From Lytechinus pictus (Eukaryota): 64,000 bases of DNA. The position numbers and the translations under genes were made by a program. The notes under the pieces were generated by a model. The model saw nothing but the letters and a program-made list of their open reading frames with translations, made no database searches and was not told where the DNA came from. The stretch spans positions 15,066,001 through 15,130,000 of the forward strand of contig NC_087248.1 in the NCBI RefSeq assembly GCF_037042905.1. The letters run 5' to 3'. Positions 2,838 to 60,130 of the stretch are shown here, one piece after another (position 1 is the stretch's first letter; every line of letters starts with the position of its first letter).

Positions 2838-8382
<5,545 letters not shown>

Positions 8383-9673: not shown

Positions 9674-10134
9674 TACATAGACAAATCACAAGCCTTTTTA
9701 AATAGTTGTTTTGTCAACTGTTTATTCTATTTAAATGAACACTAAACATCATATGTATAAAACTACAGGCTAATGCACATCCATATTATGAATTTATTTT
9801 CATCAATTACACTTGTTTTGGCATAAAAAATTGAATGCAGTTCTCTCCTTTTCCCCTATTTGATTTCTTTTCCTTTTTGGGTATAATTCGATTATTAAAA
9901 GTTTTGATATTAGTGATTACAATTATTCTCAACCAAAAATAAGGTTATGCTATCTTTTTTTCAGAATTAAGAAATATGCAAAATGCTTTTTCTTCTAAAA
10001 TCAGTTTGTAAACCAGTTATTTGCCTGTAATAGATGGTTTCTTATGGGAGCACACACTGACGGAATTCGTCAATAAAGACTTCCTGTCGAAATTACACAA
10101 CTACAACTGTTCCCCTTGGTCTTGGTATGGAAAT

Positions 10135-11196
10135 TTCATTGTGCAATGATGACAGAAGCTGGACGGCCTTAGAGCCTGCTCTGGCTCTTTCAGTCTTGAC
10201 CAAGCTTTGACAGTTTAACCTTTTCTATTGAGCCTTTCCAGGGTAACTGCATTGTCTTTCTAGGCAGCTTTCATTGTACAATGATGAGAGGGAGTGGACC
10301 GTCCCAGACGCTGCTTTGGCTTCTTTTAGTCTGGACCAAGCTTTGACAGCTTCACCCTTTCTATCAAGTTTCTCCAGGATTACTGTATAGTCTTTCTAGG
10401 CAGGTTTCATTGTACAATGATAAGAGGGAGTCGACCGTCCCGGTCGCTGCTTTGACTTCTTTTAGTCTGGACCAAGCTTTAACAGTTTCACTCTTTCTAT
10501 CAAGCTTCTCCAGGATTACTGCATGGTCTTTGTAGTAAGGTTTCATTGTACAATGATGAGAGGGAGTGGACCGTCCCAGAGGCTTCTTTTAGTCTTGACC
10601 AAGCTTTGACAGCTTCACCCTTTCTATTTAGCTTCTCCAGGATTACTGTATGGTCTTTGTAGGCAGGTTTCAGGGTACAATGATGAGAGGGAGTGGACCG
10701 TCCCAGATGCTGATTTGGCTTCTTTTAGTCTGGACCAAGCTTTGACAGCTTCACCCTTTCTATTTAGCTTCTCCAGGATTACTGTATGGTCTTTGTAGGC
10801 AGGTTTCAGGGTACAATGACGAGAGGGAGTGGACCGTCCCAGATGCTGATTTGGCTTCTTTTAGTCTGGACCAAGCTTTGACAGTTTCACCCTTTCTATC
10901 AAGCTTCTCCAGGACTACTGCATGGTCTTTCTAGGCAGGTTTCATTGTATAATGTTGAGAGGAAGTTGACCGTCTCAGATGCTGCTTTGGCTTCTTTTAG
11001 TCTGGACCAAGCTTTGACAGTTTCACCCTTTCTATCAAGCTTCTCCAGGATTACTGCATGGTCTTTGTAGGCAGGTTTCATTGTACAATGATGAGAGGGA
11101 GTGGACCTTCCCAGACGCTGCTTTGGCTTCTTTTAGTCTGGACCAAGCTTTGACAGCTTCACCCTTTCTATTTAGCTTCTCCAGGATTACTGCATG
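10135..11196 (-). repeat. 136-bp tandem array (8 units) derived from the last FANCG coding exon
   Basis: Anchor AAGCTTT(G/A)ACAG at 10202, 10338, 10474, 10601, 10737, 10873, 11009, 11145 (spacing 136, one 127). Confidence 0.93.
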
Positions 11197-14100
11197 GGTC
11201 CTCAAGGAATCTGTATTACCTGCATATGAGATAAGGATGAGAGAGGGTGAGTGAGAGAGAGGGAGGATAAGAGAGAGTGGGAAAGGAATCGGGAGAAGTG
11301 TATATGAGAGAGACAAGAATGGGAGAGAAGAAAAAATAGAAAGGGAAAATACGAAAAGGAGGAAGAGAGGAAGTAAAAGAGGTAAAAGATGGTTAAACTA
11401 TCGACAAATATCTAAGAGTTCAATAGAATAATATGCATCCATTTAAATCAAGTTGGGCAATGTATCGTGCAATACCTGAAACGATGCCAAATTCCCATTT
11501 TTGAAGTTCATGCATGGAAAAAGAATTCTGATATCTGATAATTTAAAATATTCCTTAGTTACGAGTCCATAGATAAGAAATTGCAAAGCCCATTTAAGTT
11601 ACTGATTCCATGATATGTAATGGAGCAATCAAATATTATTCCCAAGCCTACATATATTATTGAACAGTTACATGGGTTAATATAATATTGGCTTCGCACT
11701 AAAGCCACAAATGAGTTTCTCACTGGAATACTAAAATATCATTTCCAGGCCTAGCATTGACAAGTATGAATGATTTATGGATATAAAGGGTTCGCCAGTT
11801 TTAAAGCCACAAATTAGTTTCTAACTGGGATACTATAATATCACTCCAAGGTCTACCTACTAATGTTTTAAAGGTTAATAAGACTTCAAACTAAAGCCAC
11901 AATTTCTTACTGGGAAAGCAGTGGAGGCTTTGCAAGACGACTTTCATTGCATCGTGTGGCTGATTCTGACTCATTAAAATTGATGCTTTGAGCTGATATG
12001 CAATAGATTTCAGGATTGATGACTGCGTTGACTGACTGTCGAATAGGGAGCTTCCTATATTGTCTGGTATTTTCAGGCCATCTGATACTGTATGTTGGAA
12101 AATAAAGTCAGAAGTGACAGGTGTCAAAACCCTTTATCTCAAGAATGCAAAGGAAATAAAATTCAAGACATATGAAAAATTGATGCTGACAACATTACAA
12201 TACTAAGAAAGAGATTGATCTTAATTATTGGAAAAGTATCAACCACATTAACCATCAAAGAAACAATAGAAAAAATAGAAATAAAAACAAAAATACACAG
12301 GAAATTTTTAAAACAATAAAATACCTACAGTGGAAAGTAACATTTTCATACCAATTTTAAAGTTTATGTGCATGTGATCAAAATCCTACAATGAGTCCCG
12401 AGACAGAATGATTGCTTTATTTATAGATTTACAGCCACATCATAAATTCATGCATAAATTAGCACAATTAATTCATGTAAAAGAGATTCAGTGAAATCTG
12501 GCCATGTAACCTTATAGATCATGTAAGTTTTTTTACCATCGTGCAATATTCTGTTGTGATCGCACAATTTGCAGCCGAGGTTTTGAGGGGGTAATAATGC
12601 CCCCCAATCCCTGACTGACAAGACTAGAAATACCCAGAAAATAATAGGTTAAAATATGGAGCTGAGACAAAACAACTTGAACAAGACAGATCCTTGACTG
12701 TACGCACATCAGAACACCAAACTTCTACGATTATCAAATAATGATCTTTGTTACTTTTGACCTTCAACCTTGTAACCCCTACTATATGCATACATGAGTA
12801 AAGTTTGAAGTTGATAACTCGAAAAATATGGTACAGACGGACGGATGGACAGACAACCCCAAATCATCATGCCACCAGCACCCTCCTTTGGTGAGAGGTA
12901 ACATACTAGTAACTGATGTGAAAAGTGGCAGGGCGGGTTGACTCATGCATTTGTACCAAAAGAGATTAAAAGATCACTGTTTTAGCATTTGAAAGATAAT
13001 AATTGATACATACAGTATACGGGATAAGTCTAGAAACAGTACAAATTCAAGAAAAGAGTTCAGAGGTAAAAAGAGAAATTCCCTTCCTATAGTGAGCAGT
13101 CATTGAGACAATCTTTGTTTAGGATTTTTTTTCTACATAATATCATTCACCAATTTGGTCACATCAACTCCCTTTTATTGGGGGGGGGGGTTCTATTTGG
13201 CAATATCATCATGACTCATAACATGATAATTGATATTAATCAGATTTTAGCAGATAGAAAATATGTTTTACCTGAATCGATTCTTCTCCTTTTAGCCTTG
13301 CTGATATCATCTGTGCCCTCATTCTCCTCTATCCTTTGGCCATCCTCGACTCTTTCCGCTATACTGGTCTGCAAGATTCCCAAAGCACACTCAACTTCTG
13401 TCATGGCCAGCTCGGCTTTATGTTCCTTGAAGAGGCAATGTGCTTGCAGTATCAGGGCATGTGCGGTGTAGATTTCATCCTCTTCCTTCTCTTGTCTTCC
13501 ACTATCAGAATTGCTACTGTCAATGTGGACTTGGTTTTCAAGTGTTGATGAGGATGTTCCTGTGACTGCCAAGGTCTCATTCTGCTCCCGCTGCCTCTTC
13601 CTTCTGCCTACAGTGTCCCCAGAACCGCTTTGACCTTGCATGCCAGTACCATGATGGCCAACATTAATACCATGTCCAAGGGTGTGATGTCCACCGGAAC
13701 CACTGCTGCATCCAGGTATACTCCCATCCCTACCATCCCCGCCTCCTTGGTTGACTGGGTGTGAGCTCCTCTCCGCCTTGGAACGCTCCTCGGAAGACGG
13801 TGTTGCACATGGCACCAAGAAAGGGAACCTGCGGGATGACCTCTTGGTTTCATCATCATCCATCTCAGAGGATGAATCTGGTATGTTGTCATGTTGGAGA
13901 AGAGACGATTTGGACAGGAGTTTATCACACACCGCCAGTGCTTCCTGGGTTTTGCCTGCCTTCAGGAGGGCAGTGGCAGCATCCAAATAAATGGTTTTCA
14001 GAGGAGGCAGGAGTGAATTACCTCGGCTGCCTCTATCCTGAAAAGATAGATAAAACCATCCGTGATCAAATACATATCCACTCCCTCTTCCAGTAAAATT

Positions 14101-20100: not shown

Positions 20101-23100
20101 CCGGGGGGGGGGGGCAGTCTAATATATTCCTGTACACATGCATGACCAAAAAAATGTGTTTAAAGGGGTGTTTTTTCAGTTTTGGACGAGGGCTTCGCGT
20201 GCCCTCTTTAAGGGTATCAAAAACACCGATTTTCAAGAAAAAGGGTGGTTTTAAAAGACTGGTCAACTGTCAATCACGGGGTCAAATGTATTTAGGGTAT
20301 GTTTTTTCCCCAAGCTTTTTCCCAGGGGTCTAATTCTGGCGACAACTTGTTTAGGGGCCAAAATGTGTAAATAAAGCCCGCGAAAAACTTGTTGAGGGGG
20401 TTATTTTGCACACAGAGAAAAAACTTGTTTAGGGGGTGTTTGGAAATAATTTGGTCAAGCATGTGTACAGCAATACATTCGACTTCGCGCACAGGAGCAG
20501 GCAGCGCACTAGTGCTAGTTTACTTTAATGTGACTGTGATGCCTTAAAAATGAAAAAAAATTGGCAAAAGCGTAGGAAAAATTTACTGAAAAAAAAAAGA
20601 TCAAAATTTTGCAAAGAAATATGCTGCAAATTTCTCTCCCACCTCCTGGACCCTAGTAAACAGCTAATGCAAGCCGGTCGAGCCATGTCGGCCAGCGCAG
20701 CATAATCGCACACAATATTATGCACTAGCACAGCAAACAGATGTCGACTTTTTCCAATGAGGCATTGCGAGAATTTTGGCCTGTCCATTGCAACCGATAG
20801 ATGGCGCACCAAATTAGGTGAGAGTATCATGGAAAACTTTAGAAGTATATTTCAATGCTATAAATACCTAAACTACATGGACCACAGAAACTTAAAGAAC
20901 ATCAATTTTGCAGGAATGTCAGCATGACATAATAATATACCTCATCATTTGTCTGTAACATCTGTTCTATATAGCCAAGCTGAAGTTCCACGGACCATCT
21001 TTGTAGTAAACAGCATGATATCCACATCAAACCCAAGAGAACTACTTTATTTCCAACACCATTCAAATCTATCATGAAAAAAAAAACGATATCTAGTATT
21101 GTTCGTTAGCCATTTTCTTGTTCCCTATAAAAAATAAATAAATCATGATAAAAATTTCTAACCAATAAGAAGATTCAATTTGATTTGATACAATTTATTT
21201 TTAATACCATATTCAATTCTTAAAATAACAATACAAAACATATGAAAGATTTCATAACCAAATTAACAAATGAAAATGAAATGGAGAACTACAAGGTACA
21301 TATATAAAACCACAAGGCCTCGTACAATTTTACAGTTTCCAAACAAAACATCAAACTCAGGAGAACTACTTGATTTCCAACACCATTCAAATCTATCATG
21401 AAGAAAAAACGATATCTAGTATTGTTCGTTAGCCATTTTCTTGTTCCCTATCAAAAAATGAATAAATAAATAAATAAATCATGATAAAATTTCTAACCAA
21501 TAAGAAGATTCAATTTGATTTGATAAAATTTATTTTTAATACTATGGGGAACTTGGTCGCCCGCGCGAAGTGCTACAATACGCGCGACCGTGCGTGCGAC
21601 CATGCCCCCCAGAAACCCTCCATACGTACGCAGAATCAGGATCCCAAGATCAGACGCATTCTCACGTTCAGCTCTCGATCAGTACAGTACTACAGTCTAC
21701 TACGTATACGTCCCTCAAGTTCACACGAGTCATCAGGTTCTACGACAAGTCTACTTACAAGTTCTACGACAAGCTCTATATACTTACAAGTCATCGAAGT
21801 CTTCATCCTTTGTAAGATTAAGACGGATTGACCCAGGATTAAGGTGAGTATATGGTTCTCGGTAATCCAGCTTACTTTATTTAGGTTAACATCCATATAG
21901 TCAGTTTACTATATATTGGCGCTGCGTATGAACACGACTCTGCGCTAGTTTTGTAAATGCAGTAAAAAAAGCGGCGCAGAAAACTAAATTGGCTAGACAT
22001 CGTTTTAAGTGCTTAAAAGTAGGGAAAAGTGTACCGTAGGGCGGCAAAGTAAATCGCACTCTTTATAAATTGTTTAAACTTTTGATTCAATCCGCCGTCC
22101 TACAGCGATATAGATCTGTATTATAGTTATCTTAAACAAATAATAGCAGTGTTTTAGGGCTTATTCTCAGCGTTTTTGCGTAGGTTTTAAACCCTTACAC
22201 TATCCCCTTAACCCGGTTTAAATTTTGGGTGTGGCAGGACGCCACGTAGGGCACGCCATTTATGCAAATAGCGTTAAACGTTTTCTATTGTTCGCCGCTC
22301 CCCGCATTCTATTGTGTGTTAGGGCTGAATGTATGCCTTGCCTGAGAGTTGCTTGGGGTGTGGTTCTGGCGATGATTTTGTATGTACCCCCTTTCCCTGT
22401 TAGGATTTAATTAAATTAGGATTTGAATTTTGATGTAGGATAATTAAATTTAGGAATTGTACGTAACTGAGATATATATTTATTGTTGAATTTGGCTGTT
22501 GGTGATTTAATGATTGCGTGATTGGTGAAAGATCGTATTGCTTAACCTGACTTTCCCCCCTTTAGCTGTAGCAGACGACGAGGAATCTACGTACGTTGAG
22601 TAGTTGAGTTATGATGATTCTGTATATGCCGTTCTTGATTCGTGAGGTCGTGTATTGATATTACGAGTGAAAACGAATTTTGACCATTTCTTATACAGAT
22701 TTTCCCGTCTTGCAGTAATCATTTTTTGGCGCCAGTTAGGTTGCCGTTTTACGGATTTATTCGGCGCCGTTTAGATTGCCGTTTTGCATATAGGGAGGAT
22801 TTTACTATTGCCGTTTTATAGGTGCGTGAAGTCTGAATTATACCGTGACTTTTTTGTATGGAATTATCCTAGTGTTATCTGGCTAAAACGGAGTTACCCT
22901 CATACGACTTTAGTACGTCGGGTTTCTCTTGTGGACTTTATTTAATGATCAATTTGATTTCATCTCGGTATTAAGATATCATCTCAAAAAAAAAAAATAA
23001 ATAAATAAATAAATAAAAATAAAAATAATAAAATAAGGAGTGATTGATATATTTTATATGCCGTTGCAAGCCACCAATGCTTATATTTAGAGTGGCATTA

Positions 23101-26100
23101 AGCTACAAATTTTAGTGGATGGTATTTATATTAATTAATTACTTAGTCAGTTGGTGAATACTTAGAGTATTTTTTGGAGCTTGAACATAAGTCTGGGGAC
23201 TCGACCAATTATATTATATTGGCCTAACTTGTCTTCGGATTTAGTGAATATACTCATTGATTCCCGTCACGTACATTGGTGACGCTCGTATTTCGGACAA
23301 TTATTGTGCTAATTTTATTTTAGGACTGAAAGTTAACTTTTGACTTTGTATTTTTATAATACGGTCCGTCTCATTATAATCCGACGCTACTTGCGTTAGT
23401 GTAGTTCCAAAAAACTCTCTCGTACTTAATCTGTTCAGACTTCCGTACACCCGTTGGGAATTTATTTAGAGAAAAAAACTTAATAGTTTATTGGAGTTAA
23501 AGATTATATATTTTGACCGTTATAACAATCTCTGGCCACCGGTAGTTTGTTGCAAAGTCGCACCTGCTGTCAATTAAAAGTACAACGATATTATTAATAG
23601 GGCCTTTGTGGATTGTTTAAGCTGATCTGGAGTAAGGATTTTGCTGGATCGTTTGGAGGTTTATACTTTGGAGTTCTTTAGGACAGAAATTTGTACTTAA
23701 CTTAGTTAATACTAGAACTTCTTGTTATTTCTATTGAATTTATTCGAGAAAAGAAATACTTATGTCAATTTTGCTTTGAAAACAAAAAAATACTTATATA
23801 AATTTTGCTTTGAATAAAGAAGAAAATAAAATTTTCATTCGGTTCTGAGATAGAAAGTTTTGAATCTGTAATTCGAGTTTATATAGGAAAGAATTATTCC
23901 AAACAAATTTGACTTTGAGATATAATATTTTAGAACTTCCATCTAATTATAAGAGCATAGGGTGCTTGTAATTTATTTCGGTATTCTTAGTTTATATCAG
24001 TATTTGGTCATTTTCTTTGGTCATCGACAAGCAAGGTCATTTTTAGTTTTTAATTATCTGAAGGGTGTTTTCAGTATACAAAGCTTATAGATAAGGGATA
24101 AGCAAAGTATATATATATACGCCCGAAGATAATTTAAACTTTTGTGTCAGCAGTGGAGGCATTTTCCACTTAGTACACATATAGGTGCTGGGTGCACCTG
24201 GTTAGCTCAGCATCGGAGTAGAGGCTAGTGTTTTATTTTCGGTATATTTACACATTTGTACTTTAATAATATAGGCCTCATATTGGCCATATCAGAGCTT
24301 TAAACCTTTGATAAATTTTAATAATTAGGTTTTCCAAACAAACTTAGTTTTTAGTTGTTGTTGTTTAGCTCTCTGGTAAGATTGATGATTGAAAGTGATC
24401 AATCCTATTTGGTGGTGATCACTGATCAGTGATAATTCTGATTTTCGAAGGAGCTTTACTCAGTACTTAGGTGCTTGTTAGCGTAAGATAGAACTTTCAA
24501 AATTTAGTCACCCTTCCTCGAATCATGTCCAAGATTCAAATTAATTGTTGTGAACCAGAGGAGCTATTGAAGGTCCCAGGAATTGGTAGTACTTTGGCCG
24601 AGCGAATATTGGTCCTCCGAGAGGCTAATGATATTACGATGGAAACTTTCTTAGATATTCCGCACATACGTAATGCCTCTGAGATTGCAGGGTATTTTGA
24701 TTTTGCCCCTTATGCTGTTTTAGAATCTGGCACAAATTCTACCGATTCTATTGAGGAAAGAGTGATAGTAGGCCCTGCTGCGGCAGGTGATGTAGCAGCA
24801 CAGGGCGATGAGCAGCCAACCCAATCCCCCTCTCCCTACCCTTTTGAATCCTATCCTCAAGATTCGTTGCCAGGACATCTTAAAATAGTAATGGGGAGAG
24901 AGAGTGGAGAGTCAGGGGCTGCCAGCTCACGCAGAGATAAGGTAGCTAGAGGCAATTCGCCCTCACGGAAGCATGTGGTTTTCTCTTCGCCGCGAAAACG
25001 CACACCCCCACCGAGGGAAGGTGAGGATGATGGGCTTTCTTCCCCTATGAAGTCACCCTCAAGTGACCAGGCCAGTCCTAGGTCATCTAGGGATCATGCT
25101 AACCCACCAAGGGGTAGCCACGGGTCACCTATATCTCGGTCACCCACATCTGGTCGCCACAACAGCCGCCGTGGATCACCACGTACAAACCGCCGGGATA
25201 GTCGATTTGATTCTCCTTTTCGGGATTATGGTGGGCGCCGACAAGGGTCACCTAGAGGTCACAGGCGGGATCGATATGATCATAGTAGGGATCGTTATGA
25301 TCGGAGTAGGGATCGTTATGATTGCAGTAGGGATCGATATGACTACTATAGGAACAGGTATCGCTATTCCCCTCGCCGATATCGAAATGACCGTTATGAT
25401 TCTCCCCCACGATATTATAGGGGTAATCACAGTCCGTGTAGAGGTCGTGATGATTGGCATAGGTCAAACTCTAACCGTTCCCACTCGCCTGACCATGGCC
25501 CTCGTAGGTCATCATCCCCCCGAAGAACACAAGACCACAATAGGCGGGATGCAAGACAGTCAAATGAAGACGTAGCAGTTGATTTATCATCGCGTGTTTT
25601 GCAATCACTATTTGCCATCAACCGTGCCCCTGAAACGCAGGCCCCCCAATCCCAAGAGCATGATTTCGAGTCCCACAACCCACCACCGGTACGAAGATCC
25701 TTAAGTACCAGTACAGGGGAAGGGGACAGACCCCGACTGGTTTCGGTGCCAAAGTCCATAACCTTTAACGGTACGGGCAGCTGGCAAGCCTTCATTGCGA
25801 AGTTTAAATTATTCGCCAGTGAGAATGGGTGGGACGCCAAACAATCGCGTAATTACTTATGTTGGACGTTAGATGGGGAGGCTAGCTCCTATTTAGCCAC
25901 GCTTCTTGAGCGAGAGCCCGATATGCCATATAACATTATGGTGAATAGGATGGAAAAGAGGTTCACACTTAAAGAAATGCCTGAGGTATCGCAAATGAAT
26001 TTCTCTTATGCAAGACAGGCCCCTGACGAGAATGTCACCAAGTGGGCTGCTCGGTTGCTTACCTTAGCCTCTCAGGCTTTTCCTAATTTGCCCGAGGCAT

Positions 26101-29100
26101 ATGTGCAGCAGCAGGTAGTGATGCGTTTCTGCCAGGGCTCCGCAGATAAGGAAGCTGGGCAACATGCACTCAATTCCAGACCTAAGACTGTGGAAGAGGC
26201 TGTTGATCTTGTTAAATGGTATCAACACTCACACCGAGCTATTTATGGGAAACCGCGCAGGGAGGTTAAACATGTCTCCTTGTCTGAAAAGACCCCCCTT
26301 GAACCAACCGCAAGGCAGGTGAGTGCGCCCCATACTTCCCCAGCGTATACCGTTTTAGAGCGAAGGGTTTCCGCTTTAGAAGGGAAGATGGACTCTGCAC
26401 TAAAGCAATTGGAAGCACTTGGGTCTTTGCCGGCTACTGTTCAAAGCCTAGCTGAGAGTGTAAAAAAGTTAGTAGTTTCTCCTCGTGGTAGAGGCAGAGC
26501 ATCTCCTGCCCGAGGGAATATGTCACCGGGTCGTATTGGTGCCTGCTTCCACTGTGGAAAGTCTGGACACTTCAAGAACGAGTGTCCAGAACGAGGCCCC
26601 CGACCGAGCGTTTCCTTTGTCTGTGAAGTTTTGGGAAACGATTCGGGATCGGAGGAGGAGGTCCGACCCCGATCCCACTAAAAGCGGACCCCAATTCTAA
26701 TTTGGATTCCGAAAATGCCAAAGTACTTTTACAGGATTCGCTCTCTCAAGAGGAGCAAGAAACAGATATATCCTTGGTAGTACTTGAGGCTAACAGGTCG
26801 TTGGATAGCAAAGACTCTCTTCCCAGAGGAAGTAAGGAACTGGGTGTTCCCTCTCCTGAATTGATTGTTAAAGAATCCGAACTGAGAGATGGCGGTCAGG
26901 ACGGTATTGGTATCACTGAAGGGTCAGGGAAAGTTCCGAGTGTCAAGGAACTCTCCTCTCCACCCCCCATCAGCCAGGTGATTGATACGCCTAGGCCTCC
27001 ATTGGAGCCCAGCCCCTGGTTGGTACCCCCCTGGCCACCCCCTGAAGAGGATCCGCAATTAGATAGCTGGATCCTGAAGGACCTCGAACAGGCCTCGGAC
27101 GTTGTAGTCTGCCGGATAAAGTCATCATCTACTTATAGCATAAATATATTGGTCGGTAACCAATTGATGCGTGCCGTAATCGATACTGCTGCAGAGGTGA
27201 CTATAATGTCTGATAAAATCTACCATGCACTACGCCCCGCTCCTCCAGTTATTAGGTCAGTCGTCCTAAATACAGCTGGAAGAAATATGAGTATGACTGG
27301 AATAATTGTAGGACCGGTTGATATGACCCTAGGTGGCCAGACGTTTAGTGAATGCGTCTATGTTGCCCCGATAGACGATGATATGCTGCTTGGAGCTGAT
27401 CTCCTCAAGAAGCACAGTGCATTCATCAATATACCGGATTCCTTGTTAATCTTTCAGGGCGAGTGCATTACCATGACTTGTGGTGAAGACACTGATACCT
27501 CTCAGGTTTTCGTTTCAAATTCTGTGACCATCCCCCCAATGTCAGTCAAACGAGTACAATGCGAACTTGATTCTTCTTGCACGTTTGACCAGTTTATGGT
27601 AGAGCCGGATGTTGCCCTTATAGGATTGGTTCCCCGCACATTGCATTCTGGGAGTAGCTCTATACAGTTATATGCTGTGAATGCTACTGATGTTTCCATC
27701 CATTGGGATAAAGGTCAACACCTTGGACAGGCTTCTCGCGTAGGTTCTAGAGAACCCCCCGACTTTGACAATCCTATTCCAAGTGTCAGCCAGGTTGACT
27801 TGACTGGGGATGCCAAAATCCCCACCCATTTGGAAGATCTTTGGAAACGATCTTCGGAACACTTAATTCCTGAACAGCAAGGAATATTAAAGGGCTTGTT
27901 GCTAGAATTTGAGGGTGTCTTTGCCCGGGATGAATTCGACTTGGGTAATTTCACAGCCATTACCCATTCAATCGACACAGGCGAAGCTACGCCCATCAAG
28001 CAAAAGATGAGGCGTACACCCATGAACTTTGTTCAAGAGGAGCGAGCATGTCTTAACAAAATGCTGTCCGCCGGGGTGATCCAACCTTCGATGTCGGAAT
28101 GGGCGTCCGCCCCTGTCTTAATCCGAAAACGGGACGGTAGCGTCCGTTGGTGTATAGACTATCGTAAACTTAACAACGTTACGAAGAAAGATGTCTACCC
28201 GCTTCCTTGCATCGAAGAGTGTTTGGATACCTTAGCAGAGAATTCATGGTTCTCCAAACTAGATGCAAATTCTGCCTATTGGCAAGTCAATCTCAGGCCG
28301 GAAGACCGTGAAAAGACAGCATTTATCACCAAGTATGGTTTATACGAGTTTGTTCGCATGGGCTTCGGCTTATGTAATGCCCCAGCCACGTTCTCTCGAG
28401 CAATGAATCTCATCCTCAGGGGATTGAACTGGGATATCGCTTTAGCCTTCTTGGATGATGTTGTAGTGCTCGGCACCTCTTTCTCTGATCACGTCACTAA
28501 CATCAGACAGGTGTTGGAACGATTTAGGGACTTTAAGCTTAAGTTGAAGCCAAAGAAATGTTCCTTCTTCCAACGTCGGGTAGAGTTTCTTGGTAGAGAG
28601 GTTGATGGGAATGGTCTCCACCTTAAGGAAGAGCATGTTCAAGCCGTAGTGGACTGGCCCACCCCTAAGTCCACAAAGGAGGTGGAACGGCTCCTCGGAC
28701 TTGTAAATTATCACCGTGTCTTCCTTAAAGACTATGCCCAGGTTGTAGGGCCACTATATGGCCTCACTGGGAACAATGACTTCCGCTGGGAGGACCAGCA
28801 TCAAGTGGCTTTTGAGGAAGTCAAGAGGCTCATGACCACCGCCCCTATCCTCGCACTACCCAACTCCACGGATCCGTTCATTCTGGATACCGATGCGTCT
28901 GGCACAGCTATTGGGGCTGTTTTAACCCAAGTCCAACAGGGGCAAGAGCGAACTATTGCATATGGCAGTTTTTCCCTGACCCCTGAACAACGACGCTATT
29001 GTGTAACCAGGCGTGAGCTGTTGGCAGTGGTACGGTTTACCCGCCAGTATAGGCATTACCTCCTCGGAAAACCTTTTACAGTTCGCACGGACCATGGGAG

Positions 29101-32100
29101 TCTGACATGGTTAATGAACTTTAGGGAGCCTCAAGGGCAGCTTGCCCGGTGGCTCGAAGAACTGGGCCAATATGATATGGCAGTTGAACACCGCCCTGGC
29201 AAGAAACATCAGAATGCCGATGCATTGTCTCGTATACCCGACGGCGACTTTACATGTGAGAACTACCGTCTGGGTATTGACCCCAAGAGTTTGCCCTGTG
29301 GTGGTTGTGCATACTGCCTGAAGGCCCACACAGACTGGGCACACTTCACTGATGCTGTGGACAATGTGATCCAATTGGCACAAAGGAGTAAAGTTTCGGA
29401 AGTTACCCTTGACCCCGGAGAATCGGAGGACCTCTTTATCACTCACCTGGATATTGGTCCAATCGACGGTCCATTCTCTTTTAGGGTCAACGGGGTAACC
29501 CATGATGCCGGGTCTGGTATCGACCTCACCTCAATGGACTTTCTTCGGAAAGAACAAGAGGCTGATGGTCAACTGACCCCCTTGCGCAAATGGCTGCTCG
29601 ATAAAGAGGAACCAGACGAGGGAACTGTTCTTCTGTGGGACCCCGCTGGAAAGTTCCTATGGGTCAACCGAGAGCTGTTTGTGCTTAAGGATGGTGTCAT
29701 TTGGCGTAAAGGCGATGACAATCTCCTACTTGTAGTGCCCAAGTCTTTGCGTACTGAAGTGATCAAGCTAAATCATGATCCTCCTTCAGCAGCTCATGCT
29801 GGTGTGAACCGTACTAAAGGTAAACTTCGGTCCAAATACTACTGGTATGGTATGTCGGGCGACATCCAAGAGTATATTCGGAGATGTGCCGTCTGTAATA
29901 AAAATAAGAAAGCCGTGAGGTATGGGAAACACCCCATGATAACTTATCATGCGGGGGCCCCGATGGAACGTGTACACCTCGATTTCATGGGTCCTTTACC
30001 CAAAACCTCACGAGGTAACGTGTACATCTTGATGATGGTGGACCAGTTCACCAAGTGGGTTGAGTGTGTCCCACTGCCCTCTCAGACAGCGGAAGTAACT
30101 GCTCAGGCAGCCATTAGCGAGTTCTTTTGCCGCTTTGGCTATCCATTCCAGATTTTTACTGATCAGGGCAGAAATTTTGAGAGCAGGTTATTCACGAACA
30201 TCTGTAAACTGCTCCATATACATAAGGCTAGGACTTCCCCGTACCGACCTTCCGCAAACGGCCAGGTTGAACGTTTCAACCGAACCTTAATGGATGCGGT
30301 AAGGTGCTACATTGGGAAGTCCCAGACTCATTGGGACCACAACCTCGCCCAGATCGCTGGAGCGATTCGTTCCACGATCAACCGTAGTACGGGATTCACG
30401 CCCAATCAATTGATGCTGGGGCGTGAAACTAATCAACCAGCGGAGCTGATTTTTCCACTTCCCCCATCCGTCTCTGACCGACCTCTGGATGAATATTCAT
30501 CTCAGAGCATCCGAGAGGCGCACGATGCTGCGAGAGCCACCCTCCGGAATACACAGCGACGGTTGAAGCGGGATTACGACATAAAGGTATACTTGCGGCA
30601 ATTTAAAGAAGGGGACCGAGTATACCTTCTCGCCAAGGCGACCCCCAAGGGAAAATGCAAGAAGCTGCAATCTCCCTGGAAGGGTCCGGCTATTATCGTG
30701 AAGCGATATACCCCTTATGTATACCGGGTGATCTATCGGAACAAGGCCCTGACTGTAAACCATGACCAGCTCAAAAGGTGCCTTGACGAGGCCAAGCCCT
30801 CAGGCCCTGACTGGAGGAAGGAAAGGTATTGCTACTGTAGAACCCCCGACGATGGATCGTTCATGATTCAATGTGATGGGTGCGATGAGTGGTTCCATGG
30901 TGCATGTGTTGGTGTTACCCATGCGGAAGGAATGTCTATTGACAAGTATTTTTGTCCTTTTTGTAGCTGTGGGTAACCCATTTCCTTTTCTCTTTTCAGA
31001 TGGATGAGCTAGAACTCCACGCCGAGTCAACCTTCGAGGTGGAAATGGACACCCGGCCCCCCTCTACCCCCCCAGAGGCTATCCCTCCAGAGGCTGCCTG
31101 GCAAGCAGAAATAGATGCACGGATGGGCCCAATCCCGCCCCCTGGCAGTAGACAAAAACGTACGTGGCTCCGTAAGTTGCGTCGATTACGGAGTCGGTTA
31201 AGGGCAGGGTCCAGGGATTCCCCTAATTCCCTAAAGGAAACTCCCGGTCCTGCCCCTGTCATGATGAAGGGCGTTAAGCCATCCAAAGGAATGGGGAGGG
31301 GGAGAGGGTTTGCAAGGGTCCGCAAGGGTCCCATAACACCCGGCACGCCCGGTACTTTCCATAGTAAGGGGAGAGGGAGGGGTCTCTTGAATTACCTCAA
31401 CCGAGAAGATTTCTCTTTAATGGATGCCCCCGCCCCTGCTCCGAGCTCCCATCCCCCGCCTCTGCTAGGGTTTGATAGCCATTTTCACCCAGACAGGTGT
31501 GGTTGGTACAGTAAGAGAAAGGGGAAGAGCGTGGTGACAAAGCACCCGGTAGAGATAGTCGGAGGGGTCCTGAACTTCTGTGACCCAGAGTTCTTTATGG
31601 ACCCCGGCTTTCTTTCCCGGGTGCTGGCTCACAGCCCCCCATACAACAAGAGGGACGGGAGCTGGAGATTAGCAGTAGGGATACACCCTAAACAGGCCTC
31701 GCAGTACACCGAAGATCAGTGGCAGCGTTTGGTTGCCCTACTTCAAAGCCCCTTGGTTGTAGGCGTAAGCGAACTGGGCTTTGACTTTTCTGTCAACTCC
31801 CAGTGGTGGCCTGACCAGGAAGCGCTCTTTCTGCGACTTCTTGGTCAGGGCACCCAAGGGAGGGTCCTTATCCTTCACCTAAGGGGTGATTCGAAGAATA
31901 ATACCGCGTACGCGGCGCACACTTTGGCCCGCCGGCTTCTTGCAAAGCACTGCTCCCCACTCCAAAGGATACACATCCATAACTTCTCCAGCGATGCTTT
32001 GCAAGCCGGGAAATGGATCGCTGCCTTTCCATATTGCTATTTCGGTATTGCCGGGATGGCAGCGTACTTCACAACAGAACAAATTCAAGGCCTTAGGGCC

Positions 32101-35100
32101 GTCCCCGCGGATCGGCTAATTCTGGAGACCGATGCTCCGCATCTCCCTCCTCGCCCGGACATGACGGTGACTTCACCTGAAAGCCTGGGTGATGTGGGGG
32201 CGGTGGTAGCCAACCTGCGGGGGCAGCCCTTGGCCACTATAATGGCCCAAGCCACATACAATGCAAAACTACTGTATGGCCTGTTAGGGTAATAGGGTAT
32301 GTTATTCATTTTTTTGGTGGCCCCTGTCTCATGTTTTATTTTTCTGTCCAAAATCTTGCCCTTCCTACTTTGGAAGTTAATTAAAAGATAAAGTCGCGGC
32401 CTATCCATGTAATTGAGGGGTCTTAGGTTCTTCTCTTCTGCGATGCAGTATTTTCTCTCTCCGGAGAACGTTTCTATTCTGTATCGTGGCGGAGAAGGAC
32501 TGAGAAGTTTTCCCAACGTACCGGGCCGAACTAGACCAGATTTTACATTCCCAAGTGGAAAGTGTCTGTTGGCTGTCATCTTTCGGACCCTCCTTAGTCT
32601 TCAGGGACTGGTAAAGGTTGCGGACTCTTATATTCCATAAAGCCCAAGGGACATTGGTTTAGTTTTTTGAAATATTGTGCCAACTTGTGTCGCACGTAAA
32701 GTTATATATCCAGGTGATATTATATTTATTCCAACCGTGGTGCCAAAATACGTCACAAGTGAGTTTATAAATTTCTTTACATACTATCCAGCGGATATAG
32801 GTTTGGTTTTCAAAGACAATATTGTGCCAAGTTGTGTCACACAAAGTTTTTTAGTTATTTCAACCATTGTGCCGAATGACGTCACAGGTAAAATTATACA
32901 TTTCCTTTAATGATATCCAGGCGATATGGTCTTCAATTTAGTTTTAAAGTCTGCTGGCCAAGCAAGGCTTATTACTTGGTTATCATCCTCCAAAGATTGG
33001 GGATTGAGATTTGGGGCCATCCATATTTTTTTGTGTGTAAATAGTCCTTTTCACGCATGAACTACATGAACTACATGCTTAGTAGCTCGTAACCTAAAGA
33101 CATGTATACATATATATGTATATGTTCAATAAAGTTTTTTGAGGGTCTGTTTAATGCCCACGAGTATAGGGAAAGAAACCTAAATTTCCTTAGTATATGT
33201 TTTCGTGATATTTCCGAGATACTGGGAAGTAAATAGTTCCTTTCAGGGGTCTAGGACGAGTGTTTTTATTCTTGGTACTACATGTACCGGTTTATTGTTA
33301 CTTTTTTGTCCACTCCTCAGACCTATCTTTATATCTACATGAGTGATTAGGAAAGTACAGTTAATAATCAATCTCCCCTTTATTTTTACGGTTGGGGGGA
33401 ATATGGGGAACTTGGTCGCCCGCGCGAAGTGCTACAATACGCGCGACCGTGCGTGCGACCATGCCCCCCAGAAACCCTCCATACGTACGCAGAATCAGGA
33501 TCCCAAGATCAGAGGCATTCTCACGTTCAGCTCTCGATCAGTACAGTACTACAGTCTACTACGTATACGTCCCTCAAGTTCACACGAGTCATCAGGTTCT
33601 ACGACAAGTCTACTTACAAGTTCTACGACAAGCTCTATATACTTACAAGTCATCGAAGTCTTCATCCTTTGTAAGATTAAGACGGATTGACCCAGGATTA
33701 AGGTGAGTATATGGTTCTCGGTAATCCAGCTTACTTTATTTAGGTTAACATCCATATAGTCAGTTTACTATAATACCATATTCAATTCTTAAAATAATAA
33801 TACAAAACATATGAAAGATTTCATAACCAAATAAAAAAATGAAAATGAAAAGAACTACAAGGTACATATATAAAACCACAAGGCCTTGTTCAAATTTACA
33901 GTTTCCAAACAAAACAAAAATGACAGTTTATTCAAATGATTCACCAGAGCTCTGACAATGTTTTGAACAATAATAGTAGGTAGTGTATTACTTATCAAGA
34001 AAATTACTGCCATCATACTTGACATATGAATCACAAAGAAAGACACAAATAGTGTAACTATCAAGAAAACCACGACCAAGAAAATATGTGAAAGATATTG
34101 AATTCAAGCGACTGATTATGATTGTGTAGCTAGTTTATTGTCTAGCTAGTGACTTCAAATCTCCATAATTTTATTTGCAGGAATTTTTGGGGGCCGACAA
34201 GAATTTGATATGGAGGCTTGTTTCATACTGTATAGTAATTTTTTACAAATGTTACAAATATATTCTAGAGTAAGTAGAGTAGGCCTACTGTGAATGATAT
34301 TATAAGATAACGTCTCTGCATCTGAAAGGCACGGTATATAGTAAGTTTAATAGAAGCATACTTTTAATATAATTTTTATGTTGAATTTACCTGACGATTT
34401 AATTGAAATCTTCTGAATCATGATGGTGATGTCATCTTCTTGTGGAGCCTCCTCACCATACAAAAACCTGTAGACTGAAAGAAAAAAGTTTAGGTTTGAC
34501 AGTGTCCAATTCACATTCAATAGACTTTCTTGATAAATATACAAACCCATGCTAAATATGTTGAGCCCCCCCCCCCCTTCAGCAAAAAAAAAAAATCAAT
34601 CAGGGTCAAGAGTTTTAAATCACTTCTATGAGTATAACCAGGAGAAATGCTCTTTATTTAAAAAAAATAGATAGAATTAATTCACACACCCTCCATCTAA
34701 AGAAAAATAAAATGAATAAATCAAACTACACTTTTTCAATTAAAAAAGAAAACAATCAGAAATAAATTAATGTTCTTTTACAATTCTCAAGAAATTACAT
34801 ATTTTTATATTTCAAAAACATAATGGAAGGGCAAATGAAAATTCAATGTTGGCCGAGTTTCATTTGAAACCCCCCTTTTGTGCTTGACTTGAATCATTAC
34901 TATTTTGTTCAATTGTTGGATGCTTTACCACTAAAACCAACCCATTGCAGCGGGTCCCTCTATATGCTTTCCTCAGCTTACCTCTTCTGAAGGCTTGGTT
35001 GATCATCGGGCGACTTAACCCTACCAGACCATCCGGTCCATGCTCGCCTGATCTTCTTAGATTGTTAATCGCATGTTTGCATGTTGCACTGAGAACAGTC

Positions 35101-38344: not shown

Positions 38345-38719
38345 ATGGCAAATACACTATCCATAAGAGAGAAATACAAAGCCAGACATACGCTGGTTTG
38401 TCTTCTTCGTGCAGTAGTTGGCCGTATCACAACTGTGGAACTCAGAAATGAATGTTCAGCGACTGGCTATGTGGATGACGTCGATGGTTTTATGAATGTG
38501 ACAATGTCCAAGGTTCTGTTCGTGAACATGGATGGAGAGAAAACGCACATGGACTCGTTCTTCGTCCAGGCAAGCCTTGTTCGCTATGTGCAAATTCCAG
38601 ATGACATCAACATGGTGAAGGCTATGAAGCGGCAGTTGATGTCGATGAATCCCCAAAAACCAGCACCAGGGAGTATGTCAGGAGGCCGCAAGAAACCACC
38701 ATTAAAGCTTTGTGACTGA
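38345..38719 (+). CDS. LSM10: U7 snRNA-associated Sm-like protein LSm10
   Basis: Single-exon 124-aa ORF; TLVCLLRAVVGRITTVELRNE..GYVDDVDGFMNV (Sm1) and FFVQASLVRYVQIPD (Sm2) match LSm10. Confidence 0.92.
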   Translation: MANTLSIREKYKARHTLVCLLRAVVGRITTVELRNECSATGYVDDVDGFMNVTMSKVLFVNMDGEKTHMDSFFVQASLVRYVQIPDDINMVKAMKRQLMSMNPQKPAPGSMSGGRKKPPLKLCD

Positions 38720-58589: not shown

Positions 58590-60130
58590 TATATAAGGCA
58601 AATCACAAAATGTAGGGACCAGACGTAAGTTTTTTCTTAAGTTTTTTCTTAAAGTTATTCAAAGTTGATGCATTTCTGATGTCTGTAGGTAAATTGTTCC
58701 ACTTTTTTGGACCTATAAAACGAATATTATGTTGATAAGAACAAATCCTGTGTCTTGGCAAATGAATCAAAGAAGAGGAGCGTGTATTGTATTTATATAA
58801 ATTATGATTTGTATCAAACAATACAGAAAAATTAGCAGGCATAAGCCGATTGATACACTGATAAATAAAACACATTGTTGGTAGGTTGTAATTTCTTCCG
58901 TAAAGTAAGCAGTTTAAACTCTGAGTGTAATGTATCAACTTTAGATCTTGGGCTTGCTCCAGCTATGATTCTAACTGTTTTATTTTGTTTTGTAACAAGT
59001 TTCTTTATAGGTTAGACGGAAAAGTACTACCCCAAACTAAGTTACAGTAAGACAAATATGGCAATATGAGTGTGGAATACAACATTCGCAATATATAAGC
59101 TGGTAAAAAGTAACTTAATCTGGATATAATACCAATATTCTTTGATATTTTCTTCTCTATATTTTGTATGTGAAATTTCCTAGTTAATTTTGAATCAATG
59201 GTTACACCAAGAAATTTTGTTTTTTCAACTTTAGGAATCTCAATGCTATTCATTTGTAATTTAAAACAATCAGTGTCATATTGCTTGTTACGATTACTGA
59301 AAAAATGAAGTTACACTTACGGGGGTTGACAGATAGCCTATTTGCCTGGAACCACATGCACAGTTTAGAGAGATTATCATTTACTTGTCCTTGCAAGGAA
59401 GTTAAATCTTTACCACTAAACAGTATATTTGTATCATCAGCATATAGTATGAATGATGGGATATTTGACACATTTGCAATATCATTTATGTACAATATAA
59501 ATAACAAAGGCCCTAACAAGGACCCTTGCGGAACTCCACACACAATTTTCTTAGGTTCTGACAAGCAGGTATTATATTTAGTACATTGAAATCGATTGGA
59601 GAGGTAGCTACTAAACCAACTATGTTCTATTCCTCGAATCCCGTAGTGTTTTAGTTTAGCTAACATGATCTCATGATTTATAGTGTCAAAAGCCTTTGAC
59701 AAATCAACAAAAACACCAACAAGAAAAGAATTACGTTCAAACGCGTCTACATTCTTCTTTACGATATCAGTAAGAGCCATACTTGTTGAATATTTGTTTC
59801 GGAAGCCATACTGATAGCTACCCAAAATATTACATTTATCTAGGAACTTGACAGTGCGTTTATAAACAATCTTTTCCAAAACCTTTGAAAAACAAGATGG
59901 AACAGATATAGGACGGTAGTTCGATAATTCACATTTATCACCACTCTTAAATACAGGAGTTACCCGAGCAATTTTTAGGTTTATCTGGAAAGATTCCCTT
60001 CGAAAGAGATAAATTAAATATATGGCACAGAGGTTTAAAAATTTCTTTTATTATACACTTTATGACACGTGAACTAAAATCATCAATTCCAGAAGCTGTA
60101 TTATTCTGAAAGGTGTTTACAATACTGCAT
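58590..60130 (-). pseudogene. 5'-truncated, frameshifted CR1/L2-group LINE reverse transcriptase
   Basis: NYRPISV..SKVLEK, QYGFR, VDLSKAFDTINH, GVPQGSLLGPLLF, YADDT, KFLGVTID, YCNLVWG. Confidence 0.9.

Follow-up and report, generated by a model that had tools for sequence, protein, structure and literature searches.

What does a third open reading frame do in a retrotransposon, and how is it expressed from behind pol? The question is raised by a stretch of 64,000 nucleotides (nt) of the sea urchin Lytechinus pictus (RefSeq assembly GCF_037042905.1, contig NC_087248.1, positions 15,066,001 to 15,130,000 of the forward strand), here called the window, whose own numbering is used below. Between 21543 and 33772 the window holds a young Ty3/Gypsy retrotransposon with long terminal repeats (LTRs), in which a frame of 430 codons (ORF3, 31000-32292, plus strand) follows pol. 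We found that ORF3 encodes a predicted nuclease of the TatD family, which recurs as third gene in a deep clade of such elements, and that the signals around it point to translation from a spliced RNA.

The TatD identity of ORF3, missed in the first-pass annotation of this stretch, is supported by several lines of evidence. Residues 158-427 match the Pfam TatD profile (PF01026) with 102 bits (cut-off 27, E-value 4e-29), which is the sole Pfam match, and the sequence matches of ORF3 in the PDB are all TatD-family. The predicted structure is a TatD barrel (predicted local distance difference test, pLDDT, of 90), and its top PDB fold matches are all TatD proteins, with template modelling scores of about 0.7. 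This domain (31468-32289) follows a basic, proline-rich N-terminal part and has a complete HxH-class metal site (H161, H163, H229, E258, H293, H327, E376 and D378), so that barrel and metal-site residues together place ORF3 in class II (HxH) of the family. A look-up in the ESM Atlas added nothing beyond the TatD label. The features of an env product, a fusion glycoprotein with signal peptide and transmembrane anchor, are missing from ORF3: its highest Kyte-Doolittle hydropathy is 1.36 and its first windows are negative, and no 19-residue window exceeded 1.6 in any of the eight families tested (the families are described below). The product of ORF3 is a predicted enzyme, a TatD-family nuclease, and not an envelope protein. 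Its N-terminus is basic and glycine-arginine-rich, with a zinc-finger-like motif in four families, which suggests a nuclear nucleic-acid-binding enzyme; the protein is probably soluble and nuclear.

Judging from its substitution pattern, ORF3 is under purifying selection. The ratio of replacement to silent substitution rates (dN/dS) is 0.07-0.31 when it is compared with six older relatives of the window family, the value for the relative at C17:19043000 being 0.07 at a dS of 0.61. Between the window copy and four other young, intact ones there are one replacement and 16 silent changes, in a tally that counts shared changes repeatedly. That ORF3 is a neutral passenger, captured by chance, is hardly credible: nothing speaks for it beyond missing expression data, and it is contradicted by the low dN/dS at a dS of 0.61, by the single replacement against 16 silent changes and by an active site that is kept while the TatD domains of the clade have diverged to 34-49% identity.

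To describe this clade, we searched the genome with the protein and obtained 91 matches. The 29 regions anchored on TatD comprise 24 with an upstream integrase and PHD finger on the same strand and five without; eight further regions include three with integrase and PHD finger, two with gag and protease only, and three with no clear link. The layout gag-pol(PHD)-TatD is common to nine diverged families in this genome, which we named A to I and represented by one copy with both LTRs each (n = 9, window family included). They share 68-87% identity in reverse transcriptase (RT) and 34-49% in TatD. Trees of RT-integrase and of TatD agree on the groups A-B-C-D and H-I (Mantel P-value 0.017). The eight metal-site residues are all kept in eight of the nine families, and the ninth keeps seven of the eight. 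A PHD finger ends the integrase in all nine families (30830-30964 in the window), and a helix-hairpin-helix-like start of gag (24525-24640) occurs in five; both may be chromatin or DNA targeting modules. PHD fingers are also reported in Ginger transposases, in the part of PMC2836005 that deals with these proteins.

How could such a gene be translated? The pol stop codon (TAA, 30974-30976) is separated from the ORF3 start codon at 31000 by a spacer of 23 nt, which consists of a pyrimidine tract and a terminal CAG, with no further AG for 31 nt upstream. Together with a branch-like GTAAC (30973-30977) that overlaps the stop codon, these bases form a putative 3' splice site (30973-30999). Its AG is the top one of 785 in the element by pyrimidine count and the first of 808 by a rough splice matrix, and it exceeds dinucleotide shuffles of the spacer (P-value 0.002, 500 shuffles). 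At the other end of the element, the 5' LTR contains a putative splice donor (AAG/GTGAGT, 21841-21849, cut between 21843 and 21844), which shares second place among 733 GTs with the corresponding site of the 3' LTR, behind a donor-like site within gag at 26318/26319 (P-value 0.010, 500 dinucleotide shuffles of the LTR). Joining the two sites would remove a predicted intron of 9,156 nt (21844-30999) and would change position -3 of the ORF3 start codon from C to A. The first-pass annotation had named this donor, had read the spacer as an acceptor and had noted a frame for ORF3 that differs from that of pol, so that readthrough could not reach it. The sequences of both sites proved right base for base, and the frame is indeed -1 relative to pol.

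The ORF3 frame is open only from 30967, since a stop codon at 30964-30966 lies 33 nt upstream of the ATG, and no slippery run was found in the 10-nt overlap of pol and ORF3. Readthrough or frameshifting into ORF3 in the window element is ruled out by the different frame, this stop codon and the missing slippery run.

Translation of ORF3 from unspliced RNA could, more broadly, proceed by termination-reinitiation, readthrough or internal entry, in which case the pyrimidine tract would be a relic of the capture of the gene. The short distance of 23 nt between pol stop and ATG would suit such a route, as would family C, in which the TatD frame directly follows the pol stop in the same frame. Across the families, however, the spacers vary in length between 23 and over 400 nt, often contain out-of-frame ATGs and lead into differing frames. 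Nor would a relic explain why acceptors of top rank are maintained in spacers that resemble each other barely or not at all. Although no spliced RNA was seen (31 reads with zero depth at the acceptor, and one contig set, as detailed below), we regard unspliced translation as very unlikely.

Among the 734-1,179 AGs of each element, the site between pol stop and ORF3 ranks 1, 1, 1, 2, 3, 1, 6, 1 and 1 in families A to I, respectively. A fixed window of 200 nt gave a combined P-value of 3e-9. Outside the window family, five of eight spacers give no blastn match to that of the window element, and the remaining three match over about 20 nt. In eight of the nine families, the first ATG past the acceptor is in the TatD frame, for which we calculated by hand a probability of about 0.001 at a chance of one in three. 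The exception is family C, where an ATG lies 26 nt 5' of the LTR donor motif in phase 2, which equals the phase of the acceptor. Five closer relatives of the window element have all retained the tract, and four of them the AG, while the codons past the ATG have diverged. A conserved acceptor was also sought before gag, where the families returned scores from -3.7 to 10.6 with no constant pattern. Taken as a whole, the signals and their recurrence make it very probable that the acceptor before ORF3 is used in splicing.

For the donor, we searched the last 40% of the LTRs for GTRAGK and found it in seven of the nine families, where shuffles predict 0.72 and internal windows 1.04 (P-value 6e-6). 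The donor matrix score exceeds LTR shuffles at P-value < 0.05 in four of nine families (combined P-value 4e-5). LTRs of the other families give no blastn match to the window LTR. Within the window lineage, seven of eight diverged LTRs keep GTRAGT, three of them with a tolerated G-to-A change at position +3. From these motifs, it appears probable that the LTR donor is the one joined to the ORF3 acceptor. As a separate observation, the LTRs of family E (element at G000:C16:7181004) and of families C and G contain a pyrimidine tract and AG within 60-85 nt past the donor, still inside the LTR, possibly a competing short intron or a U-rich 3'-end element.

The recurrence across families bears on further claims of the first-pass annotation. 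Expression in the manner of env finds support for its spliced route, with the acceptor in nine of nine families and the donor motif in seven, and fails for the product, which is a soluble TatD nuclease. The gain in start context that it had described is real in the window element and is not general: the ATG lies directly at the acceptor only in families A and I (two of nine), and 2-81 nt downstream, with a context of its own, in six others. That ORF3 is a maintained gene of the element rather than a passenger agrees with purifying selection, with the groups shared by the TatD and RT-integrase trees and with the acceptor present throughout.

Several observations weigh against the reading of ORF3 as a nuclease gene expressed by splicing from the LTR. 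The splice matrices are rough and were entered from general knowledge, and a transcription start upstream of the donor at 21843/21844 is an assumption. Families A to I share ancestry and are not independent draws. The acceptor of family F failed in the 200-nt window (P-value 0.12), because it lies 345 nt after the stop codon, and was recovered after widening. The GTRAGK test was framed post hoc, after inspection of the LTRs; its antisense and 5'-part controls each match in three of nine families, and the motif is missing from the LTRs of families F and I, the latter having a strong donor 306 nt past the LTR. By matrix score, the LTR donor does not reach P-value < 0.05 in families G (0.062), B, C, F and I. 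As the whole distal part of the LTR is conserved, the donor ranks only 27th of 363 windows. The ORF3 of family D has a dN/dS of about 0.5, compared with 0.14-0.23 for its integrase. At the RNA level, none of the three sequencing runs has any depth at 30631-31027 and no read spans the acceptor, which is uninformative either way, and the contig set X1 covers 29 of 30 bins of the element in unspliced form only, its single joint leading from the 3' untranslated region (UTR) into the LTR. Finally, an in-frame donor in gag is as strong as that of the LTR (8.1 and 8.0, respectively).

These RNA data come from three raw runs depleted of ribosomal RNA, with the same species label, of which we sampled about 6 in 100 of each; a joint was listed when at least three reads supported it. 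The runs returned 11, 6 and 14 reads (31 in total) on 11.9 kb of the element, with no splice joint listed. Contig set X1 may derive from DNA, and contigs drop rare forms. We also looked for spliced retrocopies and found none among 14 matches to the ORF3 junction and 24 matches to the LTR, as a spliced RNA without the primer site would predict. The window lineage does have short LTR-ORF3-LTR derivatives (C17:19041464-19044258, C14:9024225-9028955 and C15:27478434-27482357), in which gag and pol are lost and the TatD region is for the most part retained. Their joints fall at the end of the LTR or beyond it and not at the donor, and they are deletions rather than spliced copies.

The strength of the gag site raises the possibility that the acceptor is joined to this donor (CAG/GTGAGT, 26316-26324, cut 26318/26319), which would yield a Gag-TatD fusion without the zinc knuckle and carry the nuclease into particles, or else to a donor in the leader. 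The gag site is in phase 0 like the acceptor, in-frame gag donors occur also in families G, H and I, and leader donors in A, B, H and I. A precedent exists in the Cer1 CERV protein, for which gag-frame exons are described as spliced to a 3' frame (PMC10309623, in the portion available). Nevertheless, the window site has no counterpart at the matching place in other families, and in-frame gag donors scoring at least 3 are found only in four of nine, at unrelated codons (598, 689, 400 and 170), which is about chance. Eight families, moreover, keep an in-frame ATG of their own past the acceptor, which a Gag-TatD fusion would not need. We therefore consider a gag or leader donor unlikely.

Alternatively, transcription of ORF3 might begin at an internal promoter towards the 3' end of pol, the RNA having at most a short intron, and the donor in the LTR might serve another purpose, for example the binding of U1 to restrain 3'-end formation. 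U1 suppresses polyadenylation in retroviral LTRs. Donor-like sites exist in the pol of several families, and the weak or absent LTR donors of B, C, F and I by matrix also fit this explanation. It is nonetheless improbable, more so than the gag or leader donor, as no pol donor is shared across families and as an internal promoter leaves the phase match of the family C LTR-ATG unexplained.

The best explanation of the signals, layout, domain, selection and clade-wide recurrence is that ORF3 is translated from a spliced subgenomic mRNA joining a short LTR exon (ending at 21843/21844) to the acceptor at 30999/31000, and we hold this to be likely. Full-length RNA from the LTR promoter would serve gag, gag-pol and packaging, and a fraction of it would be spliced from 21843 to 31000. 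Transcription would have to start upstream of 21843 and preferably downstream of an ATG in the LTR at 21602. The LTR ends 69 nt past the donor, so that neither the primer site nor the 19 ATGs of the leader would be present in the spliced RNA. Removal of leader, gag, pol and primer-binding site would leave a message that can be translated and not copied, and its product, soluble and probably nuclear, would be an accessory enzyme with a dosage of its own. As to its job, a tentative possibility is that the enzyme removes RNA:DNA hybrids or shortens 3' ends where the element is transcribed or integrates. By analogy with the activities of TatD proteins and with the degradation of R-loop RNA by TATDN2, this is our preferred guess over the destruction of silencing RNAs or of competing elements. 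The ATG at 21602 itself opens an 81-codon frame in the LTR (to 21847), which ends across the donor, out of phase with ORF3, and probably lies 5' of the transcription start or is an upstream open reading frame.

Where does the nuclease come from? The host has an intron-containing TATDN2-like gene elsewhere, which groups with fish and arthropod TATDN2 outside the element clade. In a tree of 53 rows built without TATDN1 and TATDN3, the element-type TatDs form their own clade (Shimodaira-Hasegawa approximate likelihood-ratio support of 99) apart from that of TATDN2. ORF3 falls outside the TATDN2 clade, a separation which rules out that the host gene was captured recently. From a further TatD tree, drawn from 225 proteins, eight were omitted (the window's own protein and seven short matches). 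An assignment of ORF3 to TATDN2 by profile score was tried and was ambiguous, the score not separating TATDN2 from a bacterial set that had been pre-selected for likeness to the query. Shared motifs suggest a kinship of the element TatDs with TATDN2. A profile search returned 714 cluster representatives at an E-value of 1e-30 or better; 20 hits were looked up, and the four named to species are all from molluscs (Haliotis, Pecten, Mya and Argopecten). At the protein level, seven full-length sequences of Mya have 97.8-98.5% identity to the first, which would fit transposon copies.

Some TatD genes of the clade lack pol. Two loci (G000:C15:31243155 and C18:26152719), sister to the window family, have no gag, pol or LTR within 15 kb upstream. 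The public proteins P0071 and P0073, which are annotation models, match these loci; an exon that lies 8-9 kb upstream and is spliced in phase to the homologous acceptor supplies their first 47 residues. P0072, which comes from another species, shares this N-terminus, and another Lytechinus species has a TatD domain that is near-identical. Both loci are likely domesticated cargo. A further TatD gene without pol (G000:C4:20313728) has a frame of 1,180 codons, groups as sister of family H and is also present in another Lytechinus species. This gene keeps an acceptor, and three of its metal-site residues are changed, so that its product is likely catalytically dead.

The remaining features of the window copy are those of a Ty3/Gypsy element: direct LTRs, a target-site duplication, a primer-binding-like motif, a purine tract, a pol with the order protease-RT-RNase H-integrase, and a CCHC knuckle in gag. 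The 5' LTR (21543-21913, 371 nt, termini TAT...ATA) has one mismatch to the 3' LTR (33402-33772), which holds the second copy of the donor at 33702/33703. Identical 4-bp duplications of ATAC adjoin the element on the left (21539-21542) and right (33773-33776). The putative primer-binding site (21917-21926, TGG motif), which presumably matches the 3' end of tRNA-Ser, lies in a leader of 2.6 kb (21914-24524). Then follow gag (24525-26681, 718 amino acids, with a weak N-terminal helix-hairpin-helix match, a PNMA-like capsid region and the CCHC knuckle), a likely -1 frameshift signal between gag and pol (26633-26676, slippery G GGA AAC and a hairpin of -20.5 kcal/mol, z -2.5) and the pol frame (26627-30976), which ends in the PHD finger. 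Downstream of ORF3 lie a putative AATAAA in the 3' UTR (33128-33133), 274 nt 5' of the 3' LTR, and a polypurine tract (33394-33401). No AATAAA was found inside the window LTR, and the poly(A) hexamer is missing from the LTR in eight of the nine families.

The genome contains six near-identical copies, including that of the window, five of which have a perfect 4-bp duplication. All six have LTR termini TAT...ATA rather than TG...CA, and the LTR of family D starts with TATA and ends with TA. In one copy (G000:C11:23764386), gag and pol form a single unbroken frame of 2,165 codons and ORF3 is truncated. The target of the window element was a tandem duplication of about 330 bp in the host DNA (21024-21545 and 33771-33916), which preserves the empty-site sequence near 21199-21220. 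The nearest named proteins come from Strongylocentrotus, Lytechinus and Diadema, as befits a sea urchin host. Its neighbours in the window are host exons of an RsmB/NSUN-type methyltransferase and of an LSM protein, a fragment resembling the reverse transcriptase of long interspersed nuclear elements, and a 136-bp tandem array; the coordinates are 3585-4553, 38345-38719, 59250-59780 and 10050-11292, given here in no assigned order.

Searches of the literature at the level of titles and listings found no TatD or TATDN2 gene in an LTR element, while Repbase, Dfam, GyDB, subscription journals and bioRxiv supplements, which lay outside their scope, may hold the family. The word TatD occurs zero times in the main texts of PMC13524379 and PMC6238403 and in seven supplements of PMC13524379. 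The splice route to a third gene is textbook, unlike its cargo here, a TatD nuclease kept as the fixed third gene across a deep retrotransposon clade. It offers a testable case for the role of third genes other than env, with a defined enzyme, active-site residues, near-identical young copies and laboratory-tractable animals. Multi-copy models annotated as 'TATDN2-like' or 'YcfH-like' in sea urchins and molluscs may be transposon genes or domesticated cargo, which bears on claims of gene-family expansion. A wider scenario, which we offer as speculative, is that an old Gypsy lineage of marine invertebrates (sea urchins and, by multi-copy proteins, clams, scallops and abalone) swapped env for a TATDN2-related nuclease, translated from an mRNA that begins with an LTR exon and is no template for reverse transcription; that the nuclear product strips RNA:DNA hybrids or silencing RNAs from element loci; that hosts recruit the nuclease via the same acceptor, to which they splice exons of their own; and that many 'TATDN2-like' genes annotated in these animals are transposon genes.

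Among known systems, the arrangement resembles and departs from several. In retroviruses, the major donor is usually found 3' of the primer-binding site, whereas the putative donor here is inside the LTR and upstream of that site. Retroviruses and errantiviruses express env from a spliced subgenomic mRNA, with an acceptor better conserved than the donor, according to the parts of PMC13669377 and PMC1262188 that concern it. The errantiviral env of Drosophila gypsy, Kuruka and Tirant is likewise a third frame after pol with an acceptor just before it, but ORF3 encodes a soluble TatD nuclease without signal or membrane segment. A survey found env-carrying Gypsy elements absent from echinoderms, as far as the available text of PMC13524379 goes. 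Among TatD proteins there are 3' exonucleases and apurinic/apyrimidinic endonucleases, the HxH motif marking class II (PMC10085689, available part), and human TATDN2 degrades R-loop RNA, as stated in the accessible portion of PMC10711561. ORF3 shares with TATDN2 the HxH motif and a long low-complexity N-terminus before a C-terminal domain, and 17 of 19 element-type, 9 of 14 TATDN2 and none of 20 bacterial rows have an F/Y-C/S-x-P motif; the identity of ORF3 to named TATDN2 proteins is, however, only 24-28%.

Cer1 of Caenorhabditis elegans also has a non-env accessory protein at the env position, CERV, whose mRNA is spliced and whose site of action is the nucleus. CERV differs in using gag-frame exons, in lacking homologues outside nematodes and in exporting genomic RNA (PMC10309623, same portion), whereas ORF3 is an enzyme of a universal family. 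The closest precedent is provided by Juno and Vesta of bdelloid rotifers, in which ORF3 is a DEDDy 3'-5' exonuclease or a GDSL esterase, of function unknown to the authors, who state that ORF3s typically come from spliced messages (PMC5408684, in the sections on ORF3). There, too, an enzyme with intact catalytic residues and not env is the third gene. Our elements differ in having a TatD barrel rather than a DEDDh/y fold and a PHD finger at the C-terminus of pol. According to those sections, the rotifer ORF3s are recent, family-specific and near neutral within the genome; the sea urchin ORF3, by contrast, is clade-wide, tracks the pol tree and bears the marks of purifying selection.

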